A stretch of DNA of 64,000 bases from the NCBI RefSeq assembly GCF_964355755.1, contig NC_092671.1, forward strand, positions 13,144,001 to 13,208,000, written 5' to 3'. Position numbers and translations under genes: made by a program. Shown here one piece after another: positions 11,701 through 64,000 of the stretch; position 1 is the first letter of the stretch, and each line of letters starts with the position of its first letter. The notes below the pieces were generated by a model. That model was not told the origin of the DNA and searched no databases. It was given only the letters and a program-made list of their open reading frames with translations. The stretch is from Antedon mediterranea. Its lineage: Eukaryota; Animalia; Echinodermata.

Positions 11701-14700
11701 GATGTAGAGTGGATTGTGACCTAAACTGCTGATATTAAGCGTCAGCATTAGCGCGTACAACATTAGCGACTTTTCGTTTTAATGATGCACCGTGGAGGAG
11801 GTGTAAAAAGACAGGATGGTCATTATAAAACGTCAAAGTGTTGAACGTATAGTTATGAAAAACTTTAATTTTTTCAAATAATTCAATTTTGCTTTGCAAT
11901 ATTTTTTTATCCAAAAAAACAATAATAAATATTATACATTATACGTACATTCTGTTAATACGCTGTAGACCAGAAAACGTAAATGGTTCAATTTGCTCCA
12001 GAGTACTATTACTAATGTCACTGAAATATACAAAGGGTGATTCAACATATTTTATTATTAGTGCGTAACTAATGAAAGTACCATGTTTAAACGCAATGTT
12101 AGTTTAGTTTTGATACGACGATTGAAAAAACCCAAACAATCGATTTTTGTTTAATAATAGTATTGTTATTTAACTGAAAACTATAATTAAATTAAATTGC
12201 ATAGGCGTACCTATGCCTACATTTTTTTAAATTTCTTTATTATCATTATTATTATCCTCATTCTCATTATTATCTTTATAATTTTTATCATCATCTATAT
12301 AATCATTATCATCATCTTTGTAATCATCTTTGTAATCGTCTTTTTAATCACCTTTGTAATCATCTTTGTCATCATCTTTATAATCATCTTTGTAATCTTC
12401 TTTGTAATCATCTTTACAATCACCTTTGTAATCTTTTTTGTAATCATCTTTATAATCATTATCTTCATCTTTGTAATCGTCTTTGTAATTGTCTTTGTAA
12501 TCGTCTTTGTAATAATCTTTGTAATCGTCTTTTTAATCACCTTTGTAATCATCTTTGTAATCATCTTTATAATCACCTTTATACTCATTATCTTCATCTT
12601 TGCAATCGTCTTTTTAATCATTTTTGTAATCGTCTTTTTAATCACCTTTGTAATCATCTTTGTAATCATCTTTATAATCATCTTTATAATCATTATCTTC
12701 ATCTTTGTAATCGTCTTTGTAATCGTCTTTGCAATCGTCTTTGCAATCGTCTTTGTAATCGTCTTTGTAATTGTCTTTGTAATCGTCTCTGAAATCGTCT
12801 TTGCAGTCCTCTTTGTAATCGTCTTTGTTATCGTTATCATTATTATAATTCTTATTACCAGCAAAATTATAATATAAGCCTATTATTTATAAAAGCTTAC
12901 ATATTTCTAACAAAAGATCCTTGGAAAGTCGTCCTCGTTAGCTTCCTAATAGGATTACCATTCAATATTCTACAAAATGCGAAAAATAAAAAGGTATGAT
13001 TTGTAATTAATTGATTATTTAATTATTGACTGAATTGATGCTACAGTATAACCTTTCTCTCTCTCCTCATACTATGCTAAATATAATATAATATATAATA
13101 AAATAATGGCAGATGAACTGATGAAATAATTTACTTACATTGTGTCAAGTCGAGGTAAATTTGTAAATGATCCATCGACACACCTCAACCTATTATAACT
13201 CGCAGATCTTTAACATGAAAATATTCAATAAAGAATACATAATTATACATTAAGTGCATTATTATGCCAAAGTTAAATGTTTTAATTAATGTATAATTAC
13301 GATGGTATAATAAATAGTAGTTATGACCACAAATTATGTACCGCCGGTCTCCTCTGTCCAATGTGATTATGCTTTGAAAATACAGTTGGGAAACAACTAA
13401 TTCTCCATGGTATAGTTACTTAAAAAGCAACAGACATACACTTAAGTTGGGAAAAATGTAGGCCAGTGACAACATTTAGCTGATAACTTACATTGTGGTT
13501 ATTTTCTTTGGAAATTTTGGTAATTTAGTCAAGTTGTTGAAATCTAAAGATCTGAAAAAGAAAATATTCACCATTTTATCATTATCATTAAATCTATTAA
13601 TTAATTTAAATGACAGATCCGTAACAGACAAAATCAGGAAAGGGAAAACTTACAACATGGCGTTTAAAATAAGTACCTGATACTCAATACTCGCTCTTCA
13701 CCCGCTATACTGGAAAACCCTTTTATTATTTACACTAGTAAAGGAGTGTGAAACAGCAGTAGCGAAATTTAGATTTGAGTGAATGTGCACGACGTTCACG
13801 TCCACATGGATTACAGTCGACTGTTACTCGTCGACAAATATATGAACGGTTAGATGTGGATACTCACGTTGACGTTTCAGTGAACGTATAGTCAGTAAAA
13901 ACAAAGTAAGAACAAATTGCAACAGAATTGTTTGTTTTGTCTGGTTGATATGGTCCAAAAGTTTAACAAACATCGAATATCGGATAGTGGGTTAATTAGC
14001 ATACATTAAAAATGCCGCCATTTACCATTTTGAAGCCATGTATGTCCTGAACGGTTGGTTTTAGACGACCTAAGTGCATTGATGACATTAAACTTCCCAT
14101 TAAATATGTTTTAACTTAGTCATAGGTACGTCATATATTATTGTATAACTGCTTAAATGACATTATCCTACTGAAAAAAATCTATAAACTGCAGGAAAAC
14201 AAGTTTCTTAACATTTTCTTGTTTTTACCAAAATCGGACATCAAAAACAGGGTTAATTAGCATAAATTTAAAATGGCAGTTATTTGCTATGCCATTTGAA
14301 GCCCTGTATCTTCTTAAAGGTTGGTTTTAGACCCGAAAGTGAATTACGAGTAAATAATAATAATAAGATATTAAACTTTTTTTGAATATTGATAATTCAC
14401 AGTTAGTAATATAATTTAACTTAAATTTAACTACATTTACTTTTGCATTGATACGACGTCATACGTCCACCCGTACTCATGTCAGAGAGCGAACTGAATA
14501 AAACCCTAAATTTCAAATTTGGCAGTAGCATAAATTAACGTCATAGACTAGCAGTCGTCATAGTCTATATTATAGTATCTGTATTACATCAACGTTAGCT
14601 TTGTGTCCTACATTTGTCTCTATTATTGATAAAATGTACATTTCAGGCACACCATAACAATGTAATTCAAAACTTACATTTCGTTTAATTCGGAAAGTCG

Positions 14701-17409: not shown

Positions 17410-18217
17410 TTTCTACGTTTAGTACTGATAGCGGCCAGGCTGAATATTAGCTATTACGATTATTGTCCGAGTCAAATATAATAGTTAAAATTACATGTTA
17501 CTTCCTTATACATTATTTTCCAATGAATGAATGAATCTTTTCAGTTTTAATTCTTGAGATCACTCACAATTGAAAGGCAAACACCTTTAGTTAAATATTC
17601 TATTATTAGGCCTATAGAAATTTTATTAAGAATTGGTTTCCTATTCTATGTTTATAAGGGAAAAGTGAGATTCTTCCCTTTTCGGTGTGACGTATGTGAC
17701 TTTAATTTTACGCTATAAAATTGTCTTAAAATGAAATTGTCTGTTATTATTCTCAGTATATGTGATCACCATAAGCGTATATTCGATCGGGCTATTTTGA
17801 GCAGATTTATTAGAGATCTAGCTGCTCCAAGTCCTTTTATTTTATTTTTATTAAACCTTATTTAAAGAGGGTAACCAAACAGTATGCTGACACTCAAGGG
17901 ACCTTCATAACAACCTTGCTGTTTTTTTTTTCTCTTTTGTGGCGTTAACCACTATTTTATTCATTTCATTCTCAAATGATCAATACAATGATTTTACACT
18001 TCATCCAAATATATATTCTCTGTTCTGTTATTTTCTTGTCCTTTCTTTTATCTTTTGTACGATTTGATCGAAACAATTCGGTCATATATATATATATATA
18101 TATTGGGGCGACTTTTTCTCATTCTCACAGATTTCCTCATCTTTATCGTTTCAAATTAATTAATTAAATTTCAGTATATCACCGGGCGGTTTAGAATTAA
18201 TGTTCTTTGCCTGATTT

Positions 18218-22684: not shown

Positions 22685-23944
22685 ATGACGTATTCTGAGT
22701 GTGTTAGTGAAGATGAATACTACATTTGTCCATCTGAATTCGGGGACTCGTCTAAAACATCCTGCTGTATCGATAGCTACGGCGTTGGACAGTGCTGTGT
22801 CCCAGAGACGATAGGGGCCACTAATGATCAGCCTTGGGCCGGCTACCAGACAGATACGTAAGTTATAGCACAATATCATTGTATGGTGTGTGATATTTAT
22901 ACTAATTATGAATAAATATGTTTATAAATGTAATAAAATAATAATAATAATAAATATTGAATAGAAAATTTAATTTTGTAAACTGATTATGTTAATATTA
23001 TTAATTTCAATGTCTAATTAATTCTATATCGGCATCGGCAATAAATTCAACAATAAAATATTAATGTTCTCTGTTGTATGGCGGTATCTCTTTTAACTTA
23101 AAGCAAACGTGATTATATTAATATTCTGCTTAAATCTATAAATTGATCAAGTGACTAATTGTAATTTTCATTTTTTTATCTTGTTTATTAACACATCCAT
23201 TATTAAATCAGTAGGCCTATTCAATGACTGAAATAAATAGAATATGCCTGCAACGTATATGCATATTGAATACTAAAGATTATAACTGAGATTAATATGA
23301 AATATACAGTAGTTCATAACGTTGAGATGATGATAATAAAGTTGATGGAAATAATAATTATCAGGTTTCTGAAATATCATCGTATATTTATTTTGTAGAG
23401 TAATAATATTTAAATAGATTCATAAATATTTAAATGTTTACCAAATTACCACATTTTCTTCTTATTTTACAGTCCTATGATATATTATATGGATTATTTA
23501 TTGATATTCGGAGCCAGTGCTGTATTGTTAGTGATAATGGGACTACTGTGCTGTGAATACTCGGATTTTACTTTAGAACAAGACAACTCGTATCTAATTA
23601 AACAACACTCAGTTGCACCTAACACTAGATTTTCCGAACCTCACGACTACAATGGTAACAATTTCCGGGTCCTTCGTGAGTATAATCGGCACATCGACAA
23701 TGTACCTTCGGCACCGCCGAGTTATTACGAAGAATTTGACAACGGAACCTTCGGTCGCAATTATGAAAGACACCACTATCCCGAACAATTGACTGAAAAC
23801 ACCAACACTTTTAAAAAGTCGAATCAGCATTGCCATACAGACACGAAAATGCAATATCAATTAGAATCAACGTCGTGCCACAACTGGTACCTTCCACCCT
23901 CCAACGCTCCTCGACGATCACCTTCCTTTAATGATTGGTCTTGA
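22685..23944 (+). CDS. Shisa/WBP1/VOPP1-like single-pass membrane protein, about 214 aa, 2 coding exons
   Basis: Exon 22685-22857 (MTYSECVSEDEYYICPSEFGDSSKTSCCIDSYGVGQCCVPE..., donor gtaagt) splices in frame to the acceptor tttacag at 23473. Six-Cys C..C..CC..CC ectodomain, TM, juxtamembrane CC, and a PPSY motif. Confidence 0.82.
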
Positions 23945-35659: not shown

Positions 35660-38600
35660 CAGTGTTATGATGTCTTGCCAGTTAGTTGAAAGTAGTTGAA
35701 ATGCTTCTTCCATTCGACACATGCCGTCGTCTGGTTTTATACCAGGTACAAAATCTTCAAGTACCTCCTAAAAAAAATTTGATTAACAGTTTAACAATTT
35801 TTTTGAATTATAACTAATATAATGATGATATGTATCAAAGTATAAAGACCCATTTACACTAGGACGATAACGATCGACGATAAAAAAATAAACATACCTT
35901 TTTTTTACATAAAAGAAATTTTTTTTTAAAGAAATTTGTTTTCAATAAAACTATAGGATAACCAGTTAGGTTGTTAACAATATGAACTTACTGGGAGTGT
36001 TTCTTGGTAACCGCCGTCATATACCCTTTTTCCGACTGCAAAAGAGAAAGAAAATACAATCAATCATTAGTACGATAAAACAGTAACAACATAATATCAG
36101 ATCAACTTAAACCTTGAAATAAAAACAGACCAGAGCTGTCTATACTTGATAATAATTTAATTTTGAAAATAATTCCTCCCCAAAATTCCAAATATTATAT
36201 AGCCTATACTATATAGTTAAGTTCGGTTCCTAAAATAATTATAAAACACTATCACTCAAAAAGAAATATTACTTGTTAAAATATAGTTTTTCAAAATTGA
36301 ATACATGATATATGTAAAATACGTAGTATACCATTTAAATTGTTGTAGAGATTGCTAAGTAACGGCAGTAATACGTATAGTGAGTTAATAATCAGAAGTG
36401 TTTATGGAAATATACGAGATAAGCGATAAATTGTATAGATATTAAAGCAGACACTAAACATACTGAATGGAAGTTCATTACAATTTGAAATTGAAACTTA
36501 AAGAATGACTGTACATTGCAGGTGATCTTTTATTAACCTGTCCTATTTCAATACGTAATTGCTCAGTAATTAATCTTGTTGCTAAGTTGATAGACTTAAA
36601 TTATTTTGTAGATAGTATTTATAGTTTATAGTTAGTTATAATTTATATATATCCAATTGATATTTTAGTAAATAGTTTTTGTTTGTGAAGAAAATTGTCG
36701 ACTACTTATCCTTATTTTATGTTTTAATCAGCCATGGCTGGAGTACTCCGAGGTACTGTACTAAATAACTAACGTCGCACCAAATTAGGTACGGTACAGT
36801 AGTAGAAATGGGAGTGGACAGATGTAAGAATGTCTAGTGATGTAAAACACTTCGGGAATGAGATAAATAATTTTAATAAGGTCATTTAAGGTCTAGCTCT
36901 TGGCAAATAGTTTTCCTGTGAACAAAATATTAAACAAATATATGTATTAGTAAGAGTAAAAATAAGTAAAATGAGTCAGTGAGTGAAACCAAGTGACTAA
37001 ATTACATTAATATGAATATTTAATAACATTTCGTACTGCTTACGTAATTGGCACGCATAACCAATGCACTTTTAGAAAATTATTAATAAGATCACGAAAC
37101 GTTGTTTTTAATTGTTTGGTGTACAAAATTCAACTGTGAAACATGAAACCAAACATGATTAACAGTTTATATTTATGAAATAATTAAATTAAAGCACACA
37201 TTTAGCATAAAACATTAAATATCGATTGTTTTTTTTTGTTACAATAATTATAAAATACTATTTAGATTTCTTTTCCAATTTATTTCTCTGCTATATGCTA
37301 TGTATAAATGATTTTGACGTAAATTATGAACCAAAGAACTGCAAAATGTATAATAGATAACGAAAAAGTCAACTGTGTCTAATTTCTATCAAACTTGAAC
37401 ATAAAACTTTATCAGGGAAAAATACGATGGCGTTCGTGTAATAAAAGTTTCGGACAATCGGATCGCCCACGCTGATGATAGACAAGTAGGCCTAACATCA
37501 ATACAATAAACGCAATATTAAATAAAAATGATATTGATTAAGTACGTGTTTGGCAATGAGATGAGAATTCAATCAATCCTTTACACATTGCTAATTATTG
37601 CAGGGCGTGTGGTTGTGATGGTAGCCGTGTCTAATAAATGATAACATATTGATAATTTAACCAATTAACATGATATCGTATTGTCCAAAACATTGTAATA
37701 ACACTTTATTTCAATATTCAAACATATTAGATGTACTTTATTTACTATCTTTGTTTGAAGAATTGATCAGGTTAAAGATTTATTCTTGGCAACCGTAACA
37801 AATGGAATGATATTCTCTATTATTCATGTTGGTTTGCATAAAATAAAGTTTTAAATTAATATAAAGTATAATAGAAATATTATTGCTTTTTTATGTCCTC
37901 GTTTCTGGAACAACTTAGATATAAATATTAAAAATGTATATTCCATTAAATATACATATATTACACATAAAATGTTTAATGTGTATTATTTCGTAAACTT
38001 TTTTTGCATAGGCCTACAGCTTATCAGCCTTGTACTGTGTAGCTTATTGTTGATATCCTTTTTCATCGTTTAATTTATTTTAATCTGTATTTTATCATTC
38101 CCTTTGATTATTAAATAAACAAAATGATAAACGAAATGAAAGGGAAAAGAACATTTATTAATATGTTAATGTTCTATTATTTCGAAGTATTAAATAGGGG
38201 CCTAAAATATTGTCCCTAAGTATAGGCTAATCAGCCAATAAAAATAGAACAAAAGATGGAATAATGACGTATATATGATGTTAAATTATATTAAATTATG
38301 GAGGAACCACGATTAGACTAATTGTAGTTGAAATAATCCAATTTTAGGTGGAGAAGACTATTACACGCTTCCATGGGAGAACAAAGTGCAGTAGGCCTAC
38401 TAAGACGTGAATTGCACGTCATACGAGATATAGGCGTATTTTATATCGAGTCTTCCAGAGTGTGGCCTCATATTAGACCGTGACACTGTGCTTCTCACTT
38501 TTTAATGAAGGTAATTGCCATTCTGATGACATTACAAGGTCATTAAAATTAAAAGCATAATTCAATCCAATCTAATAGGACCCAATTAAAACACCACTGT

Positions 38601-39146
38601 AAATATCACACTATATTTAAATCTGTCATTTGTTATTTTCCTAAATAGGCCTACGCGTTATACAATATACAATAAGTTTTTACCAATATTTGCTAAATAA
38701 TGTTTTAAATACATTTTGTGTGTCCTAAATAGACAAAAATATTATATTCCTTAGTTCCAACGGACCAATTTCAAATCACAAAATATGCATACAATGCACA
38801 AACTCCATCATCCAAGTCTAGTTATGAGCATGATGATTTATGTTAAAGTCTTAAAGGCACTTTTACTTATGGAGTGCAAACGGTAAACGTCCGTATTCTA
38901 TTTTCGTTACCAGGCCAACTTTCAAAAAGGGTAAAGAAGCTTTCTCCGTTAAATTCATAACTAAAACGATTTATGAAACGGCTAATAATCGAACCAATAT
39001 TGGAAACAAAGTTATAATTATATATTACGGTACTTACATATTGGCTTCCTTGCGGCTGACGTCGTTGATATGAAACATACTGCGAGAACCAATGAAAGAC
39101 AAAGCCAACTAAAGGCTTGTCTATTTACATTTAATGAAATCGACAT
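35660..39146 (-). CDS. Putative neuropeptide precursor 1 (ARKPIF-amide directly after the signal peptide); 3' end unresolved
   Basis: Exons 39038-39146, 35992-36035, 35660-35767 with canonical splice sites give MSISLNVNRQAFSWLCLSLVLAVCFISTTSA-ARKPIF-GKR-VYDGGYQETLPEVLEDFVPGIKPDDGMCRMEEAFQLLSTNWQDIITL. Confidence 0.8.
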
Positions 39147-44960: not shown

Positions 44961-45156
44961 CTTCAACGCCTGGTGCAATGTTATTTCGTAGCGAACGCAT
45001 GGCTGGTAAAGGATAATGTTTACTACAAACCATTCTTCCATTTCCATCCATCTCGCACCTCTGTCTTTTGTTAAGCTTACTAGCTGTAATACATTCTCCT
45101 TGATATGATAGCAATACTACATAAACGATTAGTCCTATAATACGGTTGGTATTCAT
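44961..45156 (-). CDS. Putative secreted peptide precursor 2, first coding exon (KR-QRCEMDGNGRMVCSKHYPLPAM..)
   Basis: Hydrophobic signal peptide, KR site, Gln-initiated C-x9-C peptide, RSLR furin-like site, donor GAAG|gtaaga at 44960; TATTTAAAAA at 45217-45226. Next exon not identified. Confidence 0.68.
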
Positions 45157-45592: not shown

Positions 45593-46760
45593 TCAAGGGA
45601 ATATGCATAATGTTCCACCGTCGTGGTCGATAGTTCTACAATCTAAAACAGCAAAAGCTAAAACACAAAAAATTCATCCCTTTGTGGTCCAAAGAGGGCG
45701 GTATTTACTTACTGTAAATTATGGATGGAATTTTACCTCTACAATTATTTAACGATGTGAGTATTAGGTTGATTGAAAAGTTCATTATTAGAATAATTTA
45801 GTTGTATTTTCGACATTGAAAAACAACACACAAACAACAACTTGTTCAAAATTTGTTTGTCGACTTTTTTAGGTACAAGAACAGTATTTACAGTTCGTTC
45901 CTATATTTAACTTAATTCTACGAATGATATACCGGTATAACGTCATTTGAAGGGGAAAAAAGAAAACAAAAAGGCTGTTCTTGTCAATTCCATTTTATGT
46001 ACCTAGTTGTACTCTTCTAAAATTTTAGGTTCCAGACGCCGATTCCACTTAAATTGCTATAAATATTTTGGCCCACATGGCATTTCATACGTACAATACT
46101 TTATCTTAGTTTTACGAAAATCGAAACGCTGACTGTTGGGCAACAACATAAGACAGAAAATAACTATACTTCGGGCAAGTATACAGTAGATGTATAGAGA
46201 TAATTATCTACTAAACTAACTACTAAAAATAATGAGTGTTATATAATCCTTCACCACATTTAAGGTTAAACTAAGACGTAACTACATTTACTTTATCAAA
46301 AACACATCGGGTAAACCAGAAATGTCTTCATTTTTATATAAACTAATAATGTAATCAATAATTGTAACATGATAAACTTACGTGTATTGGAGTTTGATAA
46401 GTACTCCATTCCAATGGGTGGGGTAAACGGTGTTGGATTTAGATTCAATTGATGATGACGGTGATAGTAGCCAGAGTCTTGAAAACGATCATCTTGATTC
46501 TCCAAATATATTCGGTTATCAACTGAGTAGGGACGCTGTGGTGGTAGACGGTACAATCCACTCAGCGAGTTACTGACAGCATCATGTCTTTTGCCAACAC
46601 GAATTGGAAACTTTGGTACACTGCGTTTTTTAATGTATTGTTCTGCATTATGCTGCCCTAATATAAAGCATCTTGATGGTGCTAGTAACACGTATAAAAC
46701 TAAGCACAATAAGTATATACATCTTTTGGACACGTTAGCGGTCATTTTGATGTTTTTCAT
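45593..46760 (-). CDS. Putative neuropeptide precursor 3, luqin-like (SVPKFPIRV-amide; C-terminal C-x10-C), 142 aa, 2 exons
   Basis: Exon 46382-46760 (signal peptide, KKR-SVPKFPIRV-GKR, donor C|gtaagt) joins exon 45593-45642 (acceptor ttttgctgttttag) to end SNTHCRTIDHDGGTLCIFP*. Confidence 0.82.
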
Positions 46761-52800: not shown

Positions 52801-55800
52801 GTTGCCATAAGTCATTCTTCTTCCGAAAACAAAAGATATTTTGAATCAATTATTTATTTGAAAAACATTGTCGTCATCAATGTCTCAAGTAAACAAGTGT
52901 TAGTGAGCGGGATCGAATCTCGTTCTTCGAACTACAAAATATTTTGGACGAAATATAAACTGAAAAACAAGGTTGTTCATACGATGATGTTAGAATACGG
53001 CGAATAAAAGTCTTTCGTCACACACTACACATTTTGTCATTAGGCGAAAACAAATTGCAATAACTTAACGGATCAACTTAACCTATGACCCGAACGAAAT
53101 TGACTGTCATTAATTCTTAAAAGGAGGAACGTAAACAAAAATAAGTACAATTACCGTAAGCTTTATATTTAAAGGGTTGCTGCACTTTTATAGACAGCAA
53201 TTTATTTTAATCATTAGAGAAAATGACGCCTCGCTTAAAAGCTGGTATACATAGGAAGTACTATGACGAATAGACGTCAACTTGTTATAATGTTCGAGCT
53301 CTTCAATTACCATTTGCAAATGTAAGAACTTAGCCGAAGCCAAATTAATAATAATTAATTCATGTTATTGATTATTAGAATATTTTGTTTAATGTTATTA
53401 TGTAAGCGACTCGAAAACACCAGTACAAAATGTAGGCACGCCTACTTAGTATTTTTCTTTAGGCTAAAAATATAACATTATTTGCAACCACTTGTTTTTG
53501 GTGGTAAATCCAATGGATCATTATTAAATATATAGACCTAACCTTTAAAACAAGTTATTGTTCCCGAAAGGATTTTGACAGATTTCAGTCTTCTGCCAAC
53601 CTTGTTGCTTGTTTCTAGTTGCTATTAGTAGTAAGTTTCATTATATTGCATATTTATGTAGTTTCATTTACATTTTATATTAACATACATAGACTCCTCA
53701 AAATATGGGTATCGAGTGAGGACACTGTCATTGACACGCGTGCGCACTGGAAACCTGACTGAACTATTTCCTATCTCATTTTCTTTGCATATTTCTATAA
53801 CTTTATGAAACTATACATGAATGTTCATGTATCATATGGGGAGGAAACTATATTCAATCCGACAAAAACACCGAATACTCTAAAGACCTTTAAAAGTCAA
53901 CAGACTAGAAATTCAATTTCCAATCAGAGACCAAGGATGAACTTTCAACAAAGAATTAAATTAAATTTACGATTGAATTAGTTTATTCTGTAAGCCCACT
54001 GTTTCTACATTCTACAAATTATCATTCTAATTCCCTATTTGCACATTTAATTTCCATAAATAACAAATAAATTAAGATGAATTGGCCATAAGTAAGTTGT
54101 TTGTAGACGGATGCAGATTGAAAATAAAGTACATGAGTGGTCTGTAAAATGTCACTACTAATTATTCTTCGTAAAGATGTTCAATTTTGTACAAAATGAA
54201 TGCGACAGAATTGTTTCTATTAAAATAAATAAATCAAAGTTTAACGCTGGATGCATAACCAGAAACAAGCATATTCAATGCTATGTTGTTAGCAAATGAG
54301 CTGTTAACATTAAGTTAGTGCCCTGAAAGTAGGCCTACTGCATTTTAAACGATGATATGAATATAACATTTTAGATAATGTGCCGGTTGGGCGATTCTGA
54401 AAAATCCGAAAAATAGGTACGTCCAAAGTCCAACAGCCTTATAATATTCATCATCACGAACGCTAAACGTCTTGCGACTTAACAAAACTTTTCCCATCAG
54501 AGCGATTACTTTTGTTTTGGGTGGTTTTGGGTCATCCTCTTGGTTTCTTGGCTTTTCTCATAGATTCGGATACAGATGGGATATAAGAGTCAGACAAAAA
54601 AGGTGTCCACACATGTCAAGCGTCTTTATCACACTGCTTCACTTTTCCTCGTTTGTGCTGTTATATAAATCTTTGTTTGTTATTGTATTAGGCCATCTGA
54701 TGCCGAAAATATGTCAATTTCGTCTTCAATTATGCAATTCACAGTCCAAAGTTTACTAAAGAATATGCTTGCCACATAATTGTTTGAAAAAGAGCAGTTT
54801 AAAATGCAAAGAGAAAACCCCTCTGATCAGCTATAATTCGAAGTGAGTTTACAGAATATTAACATGTTGTATAATATACATACATTTCATGATTTATATC
54901 AGATACAATACTTCGTATTGATTGCTGTAATTTATAGGCAATATTATTATGATGAATATATAAATATTATTTGAAGGCTGTATTGCGTTAAAGGTAGTAT
55001 GTAAATGTTGTAGAGTTCGATTTGATTTACATGTATTAAATCTGAATTTGTATGAGAACAGGTGAGACGAGACAACGTCATGCTCATTTCTGTAGAAGAA
55101 TGATTGTCATTTAATATCAAAGTGTCCGATATTGCTATAATCATCATGAAAAGGCAATATAATTTGATTTCAGGATTTGTTCAGCCGATTTTGAAAGGGT
55201 ATCATGTCTAGCAACTAGATAAACAGTTTGTAAGTATCGTGTCTACAGACGACCCCTTTCCACTAAGACTCCATTTAAATATCAGCATACTCCTTATGCC
55301 TCTCTTAAATGCATGTGAATGGATTTCTACTGTTGGGAGTGACTAAATTCACAAATTAAAATATAATACAAAAACATACTTTAAACTATTGTGATTAAAC
55401 TAGACTCACTGGATAGTATAACAATAGCAAGCTGTTTTGAAACTACAAAAACATTACAAGAATGAAAAAGCGATTAAAACCATACAAAGGCAATATAATA
55501 TATTCATTTCATTCTTTCCATAAAACTAAACAAATGTATTAATAGCTACAATAACAAATGCGATAGAAAAATATTGCCCTGTATCTTGTTTGGTAATAGG
55601 TATATTTTCGTACGATAAAAGGAGGTTATTTTTTGTAGTGATGCCCTAGATTGTAGGCTATACAACAGTTTTAATGCAAATGTGATTTTTATTATTACTT
55701 CGAAGGCAATTTATATTAATTGTCGAGATGAAAACCGAATGATCATATTTTACTAATTCGGAGTAAATTTTCTATTATCAAAGCCGCAAGCACTTCTGTC

Positions 55801-56740
55801 TGTTTTTTTTATTACTTTTTGCAGCTTAAGATACCTATGTTATAAAATATGCAATTGTAACCATCAGATTACTTACCACTGACAGCCTAATCACGTTATA
55901 ATTATACTTGTCGTAGCTAATTTTCTGACCTTTATTTTAGGTGATAAGTTCTTATTAATCTTTATGTCATTGAATTAAATGAATGAAATCTGAGTAGTGC
56001 TTCAACAACACGTCTAACTACTCAAGCTAAAACATTAAAACATTTCATTAACTGATAATAATTTTACTCGAACGTATATCGGCTTACATTTCTAATAAAT
56101 ACTACAAGTAGGATTTGAGACTCAAGCTGGATAAATTACCAACGTTACAACGGCAATCAAATAACCATAAAGTGAACTTCATAATCAGAAAGATTTCCGT
56201 TGATGTAGAATAGTTAACATTTAACTTTACACGAGCGGGATGGACTCGCGGTTTTTCGAGTGAAATTCGATAAATTGTTTTTTTTTAAAAAACAATTATG
56301 GCTACGTAATCGTATTTGATTGATTAATATAAAGAGGGACCACGCGTTTTGCACGAATATCATATCACGGGAGACAATATTCACTGATTTTAGCAATGCC
56401 TACCATGGCTACCAGGGTCAATGGATTAATAGGCCTACGGTTAGTCTACCAATACCAGGTCAAAGGAGTAGCCTACGAGCTGGGCCAGAAAACATCTGAT
56501 ATTACACATAGCCCTACCTTAACTTTAACTTATAAAACTTAAAATGTAGGAAACACTACGTAGTATTGATAATCACTCAACTTCAATCTTTATTGCTGGT
56601 TTTTAATTGCGCTTATTTCCCACCACTACATGCACTTTTCAATGAGGCAGTCACTTTAATTAACAACTAAAGCTTAAGAGATTTCAAAGCTATTGTCTAA
56701 TCACCTGTGCGTAAAATAATTCAACAAACAAGTAGCTTAA

Positions 56741-57165
56741 AGGGTAGCTCCGGTTAAAAAATATATTGTTTATTATATAGGCTACCTTTGCAACAACATT
56801 GATAGTGATCAAACTTTTTTTCCGAAAGGGATGAAGCCGAGCGAGCGTTGTAAAAAAAGCCGATGATTTTTTTTTTATACGAAAATTGACATTTTATGTA
56901 AATTCGAGGCATAATTCTTAAGGGAGGATATAAATCTAAAGAATAATCAATTTTACATAGGAAATTACTATTTTTATGGTAAAATTTTAACCGGTTAACG
57001 ATAGTAAATCACTGAAAATAATCAATCTAGGCCTATACGGTAACTTTACACATTTTCTAGCACCACTTTTTAAAAAGAAGCCTATTTAACGAAGCTTATT
57101 CTGTCGATAAGTAAGCGATGTTATGTTTTAAAACAATATACGTTTAACCCCAAAGAGCTAACCTT
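56741..57165. mobile_element. TTAA-flanked MITE (Kolobok-like termini)
   Basis: ttaa-agggtagctccggttaaaaaatatattgttt ... aaacaatatacgtttaacccc..gagctaacctt-ttaa: imperfect TIRs with TTAA on both sides. Confidence 0.65.
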
Positions 57166-58128
57166 TTAAAGTCGATAGGCGTGATCGTTAATCCAATAAT
57201 GATAGTTGAAACATTATTTATTTCCCCTAGAAGTTACTCATAGGGATTTTATTTGCAAATATACATAGGCCATGGCCTAAAATACAAAATAATAATTTTA
57301 TACAACAAATCCTTTCTTGGAGAGCCAACATAATATTGAATACCGAAAGCAACACAAGTAAGTTGTTTTTTGTCTAATAACTTAACATTTATTTTATTTC
57401 AACATCGTTTTTTTCTCTATAAGATAAATGTAATATCTGTGATTGTTTTCAAAATACTCAATCTCAACAGAAATTTTTCTCACGTTGATAGTTAATATAG
57501 ATTATAATCCCTAAGGCGTTACGTTTAGTTGATTAACAATCCCTAATGCTTAAAACGTTGGCGCATGCCATTAAACTTCCTTATTAATTTCCTCGAATTG
57601 GATGGCATAGAATATCTCATTTACCAAATTAATCACATAATTATGTTTTTTTGTATCTGACATTTAAAAAGTTTTTATACTATATTACACTATAACGTCT
57701 AGTGATACCCAAACAAATGTAATTAGTGGGTGTCAAATACCACGAGTTATCATTTAACTAAAACGTTTCATGTTACACCATTTAAATATTTAACGACACG
57801 ATCATTTGTCCATATAATTCGTGTTCCATGCCTAAAAAGAAATCACAAAATAAAGTTTAGTAACATGGAGTATTAATGCATACGGTACTTAAGTTGCCTC
57901 AACAGAGCTGCGCATGCGCACACTTCAACCAACGGTAGAGTACAATTTCACTCTTCTCTGATTTAACGGATACGAATAAAACAATGACACAAGCGATGAA
58001 GATACGAATGCAGTGATTGTCAGTAGTTGAATATAAGAATATTGAAATTTGAATGTTCAATTTTGTATATTATTTATGATGATTTATCTACAAATATTTT
58101 AATATAAATGATAAAACTTTAAACTTAC

Positions 58129-59090
58129 ATCTTTACGAAACATTTCTAATAGTGGCAAGCGTAGATTATCATAGTCTCTTTTACCTGAAAAGTAAATATC
58201 AATAATTAAAGTACATTTTAGGAAAACAAAGCTTGTTGAAATTTTTTCAGAATTAATACTGATCCTTATGTATTATTTTCATTATTTACACCAAGAAGGA
58301 TATAATTTAGCGTTTAAAAAGTGGAACTTTTAGCTGGGACTTCTAGCTCCCGAGTCCCATACGTTTTTGTCGAACAAATAGATGGAATTAAATAAAAATA
58401 AGCCGGTGACTTGTTAAATGATCGTAAGAAACAGTGTCCTAAAGCAGGGTGGTAACAATATTATAAGGAAATTATAAATCACATTTAGGCCTAAATGTTA
58501 TTTTAAATTTTAACAATCTGACGTAATAGACATCTGATCTTCTGAGGCACCACAAAGATGTGCACAATTTGGTATTGGAAATTATTAATTTTAACTACAA
58601 CTATTAAGGCTACCACATACAAAAACAATAATCAAACTGTATTATATTTGAACATGATTTGTATCTATATTGAATGATAGTGTCTTTGAAATTGTGAAGT
58701 CAATATCTCAACAGCATTTTGCTAATGCAATGATTACTTTTGCTGTTGTGTGTATTTATCAGCCACAAACTGCCACCTCGGTTTACGCACGTTTCGCTTA
58801 TAATTAACCCGGACACTGCACTTCAGGTGTTGCCTGTTTCAAAACAGATCAATTAGCCTTCTTACCAATCTATTCTGTGATCAAATATTCTTTAGTGATA
58901 ATGAGTTTGAATGTGTTTACATTACTGAAGTCCTCCTTTTAAAGAATCTTTTATAACCTATTCCAGGAAGTAGCAATTTTTTGTAGTTATGAGCACTTAC
59001 CAGCAATATGCGAACTACATACTTTAGCAATACAGGATATCTTGTAATTGCACCGTTTGCTACAAGGAACTCTCTTCTCTATTAAAGCAC
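58129..59090 (-). CDS. Putative neuropeptide precursor 4, two internal exons (KR-VPCSKRCNYKISCIAKVCSSHIA-GKR)
   Basis: Exon 59001-59090 (ttttcatag| ... G|gtaagt) and exon 58129-58184 (cttttcag| ... |gtaagt) splice in frame to ALIEKRVPCSKRCNYKISCIAKVCSSHIAGKRDYDNLRLPLLEMFRKD. Signal-peptide exon and last exon not located. Confidence 0.75.
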
Positions 59091-62000
59091 CTATGAAAAC
59101 AAAAATAAGACACTAATAAAAAGCCCGTCAATACAAACATACAACTGGCATTCCCAAGAGCAGAGAGTGCTGATTGTTCACACTTGTTATTTCTTTGAAT
59201 TACATTTTACAAAATGATAAGCAAACATTTTAAACTCATAAAAACAGTACGATGCCATTAGAAATGCCGATTTCTAACAAGCTGGTGTGTTAATGTGTTC
59301 GAGTAATGATACTATTATTATATTTCGAATTGAATCGGTAGACCATTCGGTTTTATTGACATTACCGTATAGTGCACCAAGTCAAAGAACACGGTACTGT
59401 TTTTTTAAATCAGTTATATCATGGTTAAGTATTATACTCGTGCTGATAACTAAATTGCTTCTATTCAAAGATTATTCTATTTGGCAGTGCAATCAAGTTG
59501 AATAATCTATTGGATCGGTTTGATGATTATCCAATTTTGTAATAATATGAAACTGTAATGATATTGTGGTTAATCAATTGGAATCAAGAGATATTGAATA
59601 TAGATGAAAATCCAATTGAGTGTATTGTTTCATTTACATAAATCTGGAGGAGAAGCCACACTGTATATAGAATGATTTTAAAGCATTGAATTAAATACAT
59701 CAATGTTTCCAATTCATATTTTGTTGGGAACATGATGTGTTAGTGTGTGTGTGGGTTGTGCAATAAGTCGTCGCCATACTTCGATAATCAAATAATGGCA
59801 CACCCCATGGAGTATATGAAATTCAAGCATGATTTCAAAATATAAAATACAGAAATACAGTATGTGCACTGTGCAATAATAAATGTGTAATGATCAATTT
59901 CAATCCATTATGGATTATGCATACGATATTCACTAAAAAAATAAATACATAAAAATATATGAAATGAAAATACAACATGTTCAGTATTATTTAAATACTT
60001 TCAATCAGACCTCCAAACACTAAACAAGATAGTATGCGGAGACTAAGAAAATGAAAGAAAAGTCAGATTAAAATAAAACGTCCTGAACTAGATCGACTAA
60101 AGCTGGTTATATATTTTTTTTCTTTAAAAATCATTATATATTTATATATATATATTATTGTCAATGAGTTTCTCTATTTACATAACGGAATCAAAATATT
60201 CATCACACGTTGAATACTATTACTCGGAAAAAATCCTTATAATAATCATAACTGTCTAACACTATAAATTTGTCTAGGCCTAATGATTTCATGGTATTTT
60301 TTTGTTAACCTTGACTGATTTTCCCTGATTGAATATCATGCCTTCTAATCCACTCCTACTCTCAACTGTGTTTATTAGAAACCAATCAATTTATAACCTA
60401 TTCGAGATTTTCAATTTAATCTCAAGCAACCTAAGCTTCCAGGCCAATTGACCCATTAATGTTGACTTCTTTTTTTAAATAATAAATGTTAGTTTCAAAG
60501 AGAAATTTCAATTTTACAACAACAATAGTTAATTATGAATTGTATAACAGCGTGCATATTGCCGTTGACATTGTTTTTAATTAGTTTACAAAATAGATAA
60601 AGTGGTTGAAATTGACTGATACTTCAGAAAATACAATTTGTCAGTTAACAGTTATCGAGGTAATTGCAAAGATAATTCACTTGAAAATCGGTGCACTCTG
60701 TTTTCTAATACAATTATAAACACAATACGTCCTTATCTTCAAAAGAAAAACATAATATGCCTATATATGTTTCAGCATTATAGTAGAATCAGAATGATAT
60801 CAGAAATGTGTGTCATTCATTGTATAATTTAAGGGCTAGTGTATCATTTTAGCAAAAAAAGTTCACTTGTTTGTTGTACACTTCAGCTGGTTGTCTATTA
60901 AGATGAAAACGTGGTTTATGCGTGCCTCTAATAACTATAGATAACAAAAATTAGAAAAATACCGAGTACGATGAAGATAACCCATAATCACATTGGCATT
61001 GGATATAAGCATACGTATTCAGAACTTTCTAGTATGTTTAAAATGATCCACACAAGGTACATTAATATAATGTTGAATTTAAATGAACAATTACAGTACG
61101 CTATTAGATTTTTTTTTATCTCATAACAAATGATAATTTAGCTAATTCACGTTAGCTACAGTACAACGGTGCTGGGAAAATTGGGATTTACTTTTTTCAT
61201 ATTAAGAACACGATATTCTTTATAAGTACTGCAGGAAATCATCATGTCTGCTTTTTGTAATATGTTACAGTATACCTTAATTTTAATAAGCGAGTGCTTA
61301 GTATTGATATATAATGTGGTTTAAGCTTGTATAATTCGGAAACGCTCACTCAGATATCACGTGACAGTCCTACTGAGTAAACTAATATGTTTTAATTTAG
61401 ATTAAGCTCAGGAAGAATCTCACATTTTATTTGACTAAAGATACTGAATTTCCTTATCTTTAAATAACGCCGTGATTTTGCGTTTACATAATGGCTTTAA
61501 TTAAACGTCGCTATCGGCAACAGCTCAACAACCATTTGCTATTTTAGGCAAAGACACGGGGCTGGCAGGCAGGAACAGCATCCCAAAAAGTGAATACGGT
61601 ACATCGTTTCTGCTAAAAAGATATTACGTATTTTAAACAACATCGTATTTTAATAATGGTATACACTTTCAGTACAAAACCGATTCTTATTAATGGCAAA
61701 TCGATAAACCAATACATAATTCAAAACAATGATTATTGATAACCTTGGATGAACTCTATTCGAATACAATGGGAATGTTGGAAAACACATAATGTTAATA
61801 TACTTAATCGCTTCGGCTTTTAGATTTTTGACGCAATCATTCATCTATAATTTATTTATATATGCAGTCTCGATGTCAATAGAACTTCAATTAATCACCT
61901 AAAGTAATAGCGTTAAAACATAGCAAGATGTCATTTTGAAGTTAATAATTTTTTTTTAATTCAAAGGTTAATACAATATAATTTAGGATCAGCCCTTGTC

Positions 62001-64000
62001 GTCAAGCATTAAGTGCTGCGGATTAATTTTAAGATAATGTCAATATCACCATGTTAAGCAAATTCATTCATTTTCAAACGTAAAATTCATAAAACTGAAC
62101 AAAAATGGCTTACTGAAACCCGCCTTTCAAATCTATTTGGAATTACAATGTTGGGCACATTACGCTAACACAGAAATTAGTATTACAATAACAGTATTAA
62201 CGATTAATACCTTGCTTTAACTTTCCTTAATTCATTTGTTGTTGAAAATTAAGAATTAATCAGCATAGTTATACCCCGGTAAACTATTTTTCCTACTTTA
62301 TATAAACTGCCGTAACTAATATTTTACAAATAGATGCCCATTGTTGTAATACCGTGTAGGTTTTACTTCAGTGTCGAGTTCCAAAATTAAATTAAAAAGT
62401 ACAAGTATTTGATGGGTCCAGTGGCCGTATTCACCAACCACACTTGAGTGAGATAGAGTCCTTAAGTGTTTCACTTAAGCTAATGAAAGGTATTCATTTA
62501 GATAAAAGAATTGTTTAATTGTAAGGGTCTCCCTTCGCATAAATGGAAATGGTGTTTGGAAAAATGTGATACAAACTACTGAAAATAATTATTCCAGTTT
62601 ACTACATTTAGGAGGACAGTAAGAAAAATGAGAATATGCCAGATTTATCAAAAATGTTTCAATCGAAGTTGAATTCCTTGTATTGATATATTTCGACGCT
62701 AAATTCAAATTGACAACTGCTCTGTCAGGCCTTTGACTACTTTCAAACTAAAATAATGAAAAATTCGTCCGCATCATCATCTTACACTATTATTGTTACG
62801 ATCGCTGCCACTTATTAAATATAGGTATTGGTGGCAAAGTATCATTAGTAAACAAGTATTCGAATCTATTTGCTATTAGTGCGATGTGATACGAAGCTTT
62901 ACATCAATAAACATAGCATTTATGGTGATGAAATATTGAATTGCATTTGATTTATATGAGCTTATATTTCTTATAATATACAATATAGATATTATATGTA
63001 GGCCGAATCCGATATTTAAAGTAAGTTTTAAGAAAGCTCAGAAACATAAATCTTCATAATTATGTCGAAAAAACTCGATATCGTTCTAGTTTGACAGTAT
63101 AAATAAAGATTGAAAAATCCGTTAATCCTGCCTTCTCAATTGTAAATCTCGTTTTTAATTCTTTCTGGAATAGGTTGGTTAAGGTAGATTATTCTAGGTG
63201 GAAGAGATAGCCTGCAATAGTCGGTTTTATTTCTAAGCATGTAGACTTTCGTAGATGATGACAATATAATAGTAATAAATATATATAAGCAAAAAACACT
63301 AAAAAAGAAGAGATGAATATTTGCTGCGATAGAGCTTGGATATCTAGAGAGTTGCGACACGGATACTCGTGAAACTTTCTACTGGAGGTTTGTCAGACCT
63401 GATTAGATCCCGTTAAACCGGTGTGTACTCACGTCTTGATGCAATCAACGACCATGTGTAACGTTAAACTGGTAAACGTAAAAGTTGGTAGAAGAAAAAG
63501 AGAAATCAAGCGAAATAGTAGTAGAGCGCTCTAACGGATATTTTGGATATAGTATGGTTAAAAATTAATGTAAAACATAATTAACTAAGACGCCAAATGT
63601 ATATGGATAAAAAGGTGAACAGTTCATTAAAATGGGCGATCAGTCATGTAACGATATTTAACGCTTCCGGCCTAAGTATATCTCAGATCACTGACAGTTT
63701 TAATTAACATGAATCAAAGTTTAAATTGGCGCAATTGGAAATGGAAAAACATTTAGCGATTTTCTATTTGTTATTAAAAATATTGTGTTATCTAATATTT
63801 TCACAGCAGTGTAAAAATGCATACATGGATTTGTGTTCGTTTAATGTAGGCCTACACGTACTAACATAAAGATTTGTTGCAGACACCGGCTAATGTTGCA
63901 TATTTATTATACTGATGAAACACGTTTAATTGAAAACTACTATTACGGTTGAGATATAATTATCTGTTATATTTTATTTGAAAACTATACAGTATAACAC

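Follow-up and report, generated by a model that had tools for sequence, protein, structure and literature searches.

Among living echinoderms, crinoids form the sister group of all the rest (PMC11336682), and the published list of their precursors holds 20 orphan types (PMC9793003). Three of these encode amidated peptides with four cysteines. PCNP6, reported from Anneissia japonica only (PMC9793003, supplement 2), consists of a signal, a short spacer ended by KR, a single amidated four-cysteine peptide of 17 residues starting X-Pro, a GKR and a tail, with the spacing C-x1-C-x4-C-x3-C. PCNP7 follows its signal directly, starts C-x3-C and keeps the spacing C-x3-C-x9-C-x3-C in three of three species, and PCNP18 carries two peptides in tandem (C-x4-C-x7-C-x3-C and C-x3-C-x9-C-x1-C). 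Outside the neuropeptides, two kinds of molecule bear comparison. The tenascin-type EGF consensus is X4-C-X3-C-X5-C-X4-C-X-C-X8-C in the available part of PMC1578592, and two-disulfide or hairpin antimicrobial peptides, including tachyplesin, alvinellacin/capitellacin and starfish PpCrAMP, occur in marine invertebrates (available parts of PMC11767717 and PMC12466427).

Here, we describe a small spliced gene in a 64-kb stretch of Antedon mediterranea DNA (the window) that encodes a predicted amidated 23-mer with four cysteines. It shares the overall layout of PCNP6, including, by eye, similar Leu, Pro and Phe residues in its tail where PCNP6 has an L-P-x-L-x-x-F stretch; it differs from PCNP6 in all three cysteine gaps and in the length of the peptide, and the PCNP6 tail is longer. 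Remote paralogy with PCNP6, compared by eye, is a lead only. PCNP7 and PCNP18 are of similar size to the 23-mer. Given the constant spacing of PCNP7, a change in every gap would not be expected of an orthologue, and an Antedon PCNP7 already exists.

Results

The peptide and its exon

The predicted mature peptide, VPCSKRCNYKISCIAKVCSSHIA-amide, is encoded on the minus strand at 59070–59002, directly after a KR at 59076–59071 that is a predicted convertase site followed by Val-Pro. Both lie on exon A (59001–59090), 90 nt long and of phase 1/1, with an AG acceptor and a GTAAGT donor; the exon was defined from the sequence and from a joint and the loose end of an RNA contig. In order, it encodes the last Gly of a signal-like region, the spacer ALIE, the KR, the 23-mer and the first base of the amidation Gly. 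The codon for this Gly is split, with G at 59001 and GT at 58184–58183, and the second KR follows at 58182–58177 on exon B, so that dibasic sites on both flanks and the C-terminal Gly span an RNA-supported joint. The initial annotation had placed the mature peptide on a symmetric 90-nt phase-1 exon with the Gly codon split by the next intron, and both the sequence and the RNA joints confirm this. Its description of a cationic peptide with a KR inside the ring also holds: the 23-mer has the cysteine spacing C-x3-C-x5-C-x4-C, four Lys/Arg and no Asp/Glu, and the internal KR lies between Cys1 and Cys2. If amidated and closed by two disulfides, the peptide has a computed monoisotopic mass of 2504.23.

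Within the window, this spacing is found a single time. A looser pattern (dibasic site, four cysteines, Gly) occurs twice in the six frames, against a mean of 0.025 over 40 shuffles, with one of the 40 containing a single occurrence. The second match (minus strand, 15565) is without support and is preceded by a stop at most one residue before; the shuffle thus understates chance. The RNA joints, rather than this statistic, are the real evidence for the gene.

Transcript and gene structure

Three public runs were compared with 54001–60100, including one whose type was guessed to be RNA; five runs from two studies match, none recorded as RNA. The guessed-RNA run, from one study, contains a minus-strand contig of 1589 nt spliced at two joints, which skip 816 and 297 bases exactly at the predicted exon borders and read CT..AC on the plus strand (GT-AG). 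Its word depth is 666, compared with 2.6–8.5 for the unspliced contigs listed for the same run, a figure that is not a measure of expression. The two other runs contain scattered short pieces only, none over the exons, and give no control for the joints. The first intron (58185–59000, 816 nt) splits the amidation Gly codon. Exon B (58129–58184, 56 nt) holds the remaining Gly bases, the KR and tail residues 1–16, and is followed by a phase-0 GT-AG intron of 297 nt (57832–58128). A third exon, exon C (56437–57831, covered by the contig from 56437 to 57830), had been missed by the initial annotation; it contributes the final nine codons, the stop at 57804–57802 and a 3′ UTR that runs for 1365 nt or more (approximately 1.4 kb), with several AATAAA signals (56594, 56774, 57222, 57253 and 57398). 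The tail after the GKR is thus 25 residues long and near neutral (five Asp/Glu, four Lys/Arg).

At its other end, the contig extends 39 nt upstream of exon A as a loose end. Translated by hand, 30 of these letters read through in frame to the split Gly without a stop and give two Thr and eight hydrophobic residues, much like the end of a signal peptide. The loose end has no match in the 64-kb window at up to three mismatches, and a scan of the window upstream of exon A for a hydrophobic first exon of phase 1 found none under the chosen thresholds. The first exon therefore probably lies beyond 64000, and the intron before exon A would span 4.9 kb or more (59091–64000 within the window). Two hydrophobic phase-0 frames at 59733 and 59700 were rejected as first exons, being of the wrong phase and not matching the RNA end. 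A trans-spliced leader was judged an unlikely source of the loose end because this reads in frame as the core of a signal. Separately, the last bases of the upstream intron (59112–59091, minus strand) resemble, in frame, the real end of the upstream exon as it appears in the RNA, both beginning Cys-Leu-Ile-Phe; the resemblance may be chance or the trace of an old duplication.

The initial annotation had named two findings that would have overturned its reading, namely that the exons belong to a larger non-secreted protein or are not transcribed. The frame ends 25 residues past the GKR, the RNA is hydrophobic at its upstream end, and the spliced contig is present in the guessed-RNA run; neither objection stands. 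The contig comes from a second individual and differs from the window at none of 176 coding bases and at 19 of 1365 UTR bases, a contrast that is not significant (Fisher p = 0.15).

Search for relatives

Word searches of 5.8 billion proteins (lengths 73–2000 and 22–72), a collection that includes named proteins from A. mediterranea and A. japonica, gave no candidate and no orthologue. The sole phmmer match among 1.84 billion representatives (E = 3.7e-4) was rejected as an unnamed five-fold tandem repeat with neither signal nor GKR, its score being a sum over the repeats. Pfam returned no family for three versions of the peptide query at E up to 10, the PDB sequence search no match, the VIA-align fold search nothing at Z ≥ 2 and the atlas search no usable match; two cyclotides from Foldseek (E ~8) were not retained. 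The homology queries were single exons of 23–41 residues, for which sensitivity is low and a blank result is weak. In the searched text of the crinoid precursor survey and its supplements (PMC9793003), the 23-mer is not listed. A full-text literature search with motifs from this gene and its three neighbours (see below) found no paper, and the cysteine spacing itself was found in a single paper, that on the tenascin-type EGF consensus.

Described peptide families were then compared by cysteine number and motif, which bears out the initial view that the spacing is unlike the orexin, somatostatin, calcitonin, MCH and vasopressin types. The echinoderm orexin type requires six cysteines, and a separate Antedon orexin precursor is in the crinoid list (PMC9793003). 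The calcitonin, vasopressin/oxytocin, MCH and somatostatin types, each with two cysteines and motifs of its own (neurophysin in the case of vasopressin/oxytocin), were rejected as well, Pfam being blank, and so was the insulin/relaxin A chain, of which neither the CC-x3-C-x8-C pattern nor the accompanying B chain is present. Echinoderm np18 has a tail with 8–9 cysteines and Arnp22/23 have two cysteines, as given in the available parts of PMC5627052 and PMC4772807, respectively, and both were set aside.

Predicted fold

The best single-sequence AlphaFold model of a 30-mer shows strands at 17–20 and 23–26 joined by a two-residue turn around Cys3–Cys4. Its pLDDT is 71.7, that of the four other models 49–54, and pTM is 0.31. 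The modeled hairpin fits an EGF half-domain and would equally fit any C-x4-C hairpin. The hydrophobic moment of the peptide is 0.60 at strand periodicity versus 0.48 at helix periodicity, and its GRAVY is 0.28.

Neighboring precursor-like genes

Sequence prediction identified three more precursor-like genes on the same minus strand, starting 11 kb past the stop of the 23-mer gene and lying within 20–24 kb. Pfam assigned no family to any of the three, none is in the published crinoid precursor list (PMC9793003), and no paper on echinoderm neuropeptide gene clusters was found, judged by title. Because the neighbors and the 23-mer gene share no sequence family, the cluster serves as context only.

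The first neighbor, Y (46382–46745), is predicted to encode a signal, KKR, the nonapeptide SVPKFPIRV and GKR. A candidate next exon (45642–45590, minus strand) adds a C-x10-C tail, which is given by two of nine candidate acceptors (45657 and 45642, in the same frame). The predicted amidated nonapeptide shares Pro-Lys-Phe with starfish luqin, and a C-x10-C tail is a hallmark of luqin precursors (PMC5940834, available part); in contrast, Y ends in Arg-Val-amide and is without the RW-amide that defines ambulacrarian luqins in the available text of PMC9793003. In the atlas search, eight of the ten matches shown for Y are named neuropeptide precursors of no consistent family, and its recognition score is weak and below threshold. 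The second neighbor, Z (44961–45156), is predicted to encode a signal, KR and a peptide starting with Gln and containing C-x9-C, with a phase-1 donor; nine candidates exist for its next exon. By eye, the ring of Z resembles the C-x10-C tail of Y, 1.2 kb upstream.

The third neighbor, W (35660–39146), comprises predicted exons at 39146–39038, 36035–35992 and 35767–35660, with the best acceptor chosen from two candidates. It would encode a hexapeptide ending Ile-Phe directly after the signal and followed by GKR, with a phase-1 intron of 3 kb interrupting the Phe codon. The IFamide is placed as in SIFamide precursors, and convergence is possible. W and brittle-star np27 are alike only in their last two residues, and the IFamide likeness of np27 was itself judged possibly convergent (PMC5627052, available part). 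As a side observation, crinoid PCNP2 resembles np27 by eye, each having a single amidated peptide after the signal and a similar tail (PMC9793003 and PMC5627052, available parts); the crinoid survey reported no echinoderm homologue for PCNP2 (PMC9793003).

Other features of the window

Elsewhere on the minus strand, 17450–400 contains at least two copies of a gene combining LRR, cysteine-rich (DUF7630, Ephrin_rec_like) and multi-pass membrane regions, of a family expanded in crinoids, with LRRNT exons at 17412 and 3682. Its long exon (7649–5733) is an open frame 51–60% identical to A. japonica proteins and 95% identical to an A. mediterranea protein; these identities place the window in a feather star, very probably of the genus Antedon. 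A 12-bp tandem array of 44 copies (12311–12832), which on the minus strand reads as a repeat of Asp, Tyr and Lys, lies inside this membrane-protein gene region. On the plus strand, an open frame at 23426–23941 with an N-terminal hydrophobic helix and PPSY/LPPS-type motifs, without a significant Pfam match, is possibly a small single-pass membrane protein.

Discussion

The gene described here is real and of a well-known kind, and its family is not assignable; its function is deduced from its layout. We favor the view that it probably encodes an orphan neuropeptide or hormone, an amidated 23-mer from a spliced and transcribed gene that would signal through a receptor. The initial annotation had left the choice between a novel neuropeptide and a toxin or antimicrobial peptide; that it is a real, spliced, small precursor of no assignable family stands, and context and layout favor the neuropeptide.

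Cutting at dibasic sites, trimming and Gly amidation are standard prohormone chemistry. A precursor of an estimated ~80 residues would enter the secretory route by its signal, with the start codon and signal cleavage predicted, and a convertase would cut at both flanking KR sites before trimming and amidation at the Gly. The internal KR is probably protected, lying within the Cys1–Cys2 loop with a Cys directly after it; if it were cut, the chains would remain linked by disulfides. Val-Pro after the first KR may slow cutting there, and a 29-mer would result if that site were left uncut. The released peptide would be compact, likely with two disulfides and a β-hairpin at Cys3–Cys4. In EGF-type modules the disulfides pair 1–3 and 2–4, and by analogy the same pairing is probable here. 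Signaling would proceed through a receptor, presumably a GPCR, from a neural source.

By analogy, this reading draws on the amidated four-cysteine orphans PCNP6 (of the same layout), PCNP7 and PCNP18, and it gains from the three same-strand neighbors, all predicted to carry a signal and dibasic sites and two of them also a GKR. Counting against it, no start codon or full signal peptide was seen in the RNA or the window, the transcript is one contig from one study, and no orthologue was found that would speak for conservation.

The strongest competitor, which we nevertheless consider unlikely, is a host-defense peptide, in which a cationic, amidated, two-disulfide β-hairpin released by the same convertase route would act against microbial membranes or deter predators. 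The acid-free composition, the GRAVY, the strand-type amphipathicity and the hairpin of the low-confidence model would fit such a peptide too, the 23-mer being short and having two possible disulfides like tachyplesin, capitellacin and PpCrAMP, and the blank homology searches are in keeping with rapid evolution. Hairpin antimicrobial peptides of the classic type are rich in Arg and aromatic residues, however, whereas the 23-mer has one Arg, one Tyr and no Trp; the cysteine spacing of those three peptides before the hairpin is also another, and none was matched in the PDB sequence search. The near-neutral tail is not an acidic propiece, no paralogue with the same spacing is present in the window, the second individual shows no coding change, and the neighbors resemble neuropeptide precursors.

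Less probable still is a truncated module of EGF type, in which the N-terminal half of a tenascin-type repeat, with its four cysteines, would have become a processed, amidated ligand that is growth-factor-like or binds a protease. The spacing of the 23-mer equals that of the first four cysteines of the consensus exactly, the hairpin is predicted in the right place at Cys3–Cys4 and the exon phase is 1/1; since cysteine gaps of 3, 4 and 5 occur often, the match may be chance. The tenascin-type sequence is a repeat in a large protein, in contrast to the free amidated peptide here. EGF repeats keep glycines inside the ring, and the 23-mer has none there. Membership is not assigned because Cys5 and Cys6, the ring glycines, a profile match (no Pfam, PDB sequence or fold match was obtained) and the exon register are all missing. 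A whole module moved by exon shuffling would need Cys1 close to the start of the exon, and here it is the tenth codon, which also leaves little support for the 'exon-sized module' of the initial annotation. For the 23-mer, EGF is a guide to fold, not to membership.

Least probable of all is a young or decaying gene that is spliced and makes no functional peptide, as, although no homologue or annotated protein was found in searches over 22–2000 residues and the start codon was not seen, a signal-like end, KR, four cysteines and GKR are held in one frame across three joints and the second individual is without coding change.

The type represented by the 23-mer is not among the 20 published crinoid orphan types. 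With it, the amidated two-disulfide orphans of crinoids come to five cysteine spacings, and the gene supplies a defined candidate (2504.23 Da) that can be synthesized. In a class that has been little studied, one more orphan peptide is less a surprise than an expectation. Considerably more speculative, and in our judgment quite unlikely, is that four crinoid neuropeptide genes, unrelated to one another, form an array over ~24 kb that has gone unreported, comprising the peptide with an EGF-half fold, a luqin-like precursor of an Arg-Val-amide and a short IFamide in the position seen in SIFamide precursors; if true, it would mean that homology surveys have missed ligands in the lineage sister to every other living echinoderm. 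Small precursors encoded by tiny exons evade both annotation and homology mining, and the three neighbors hint at further ligands missed in this way.
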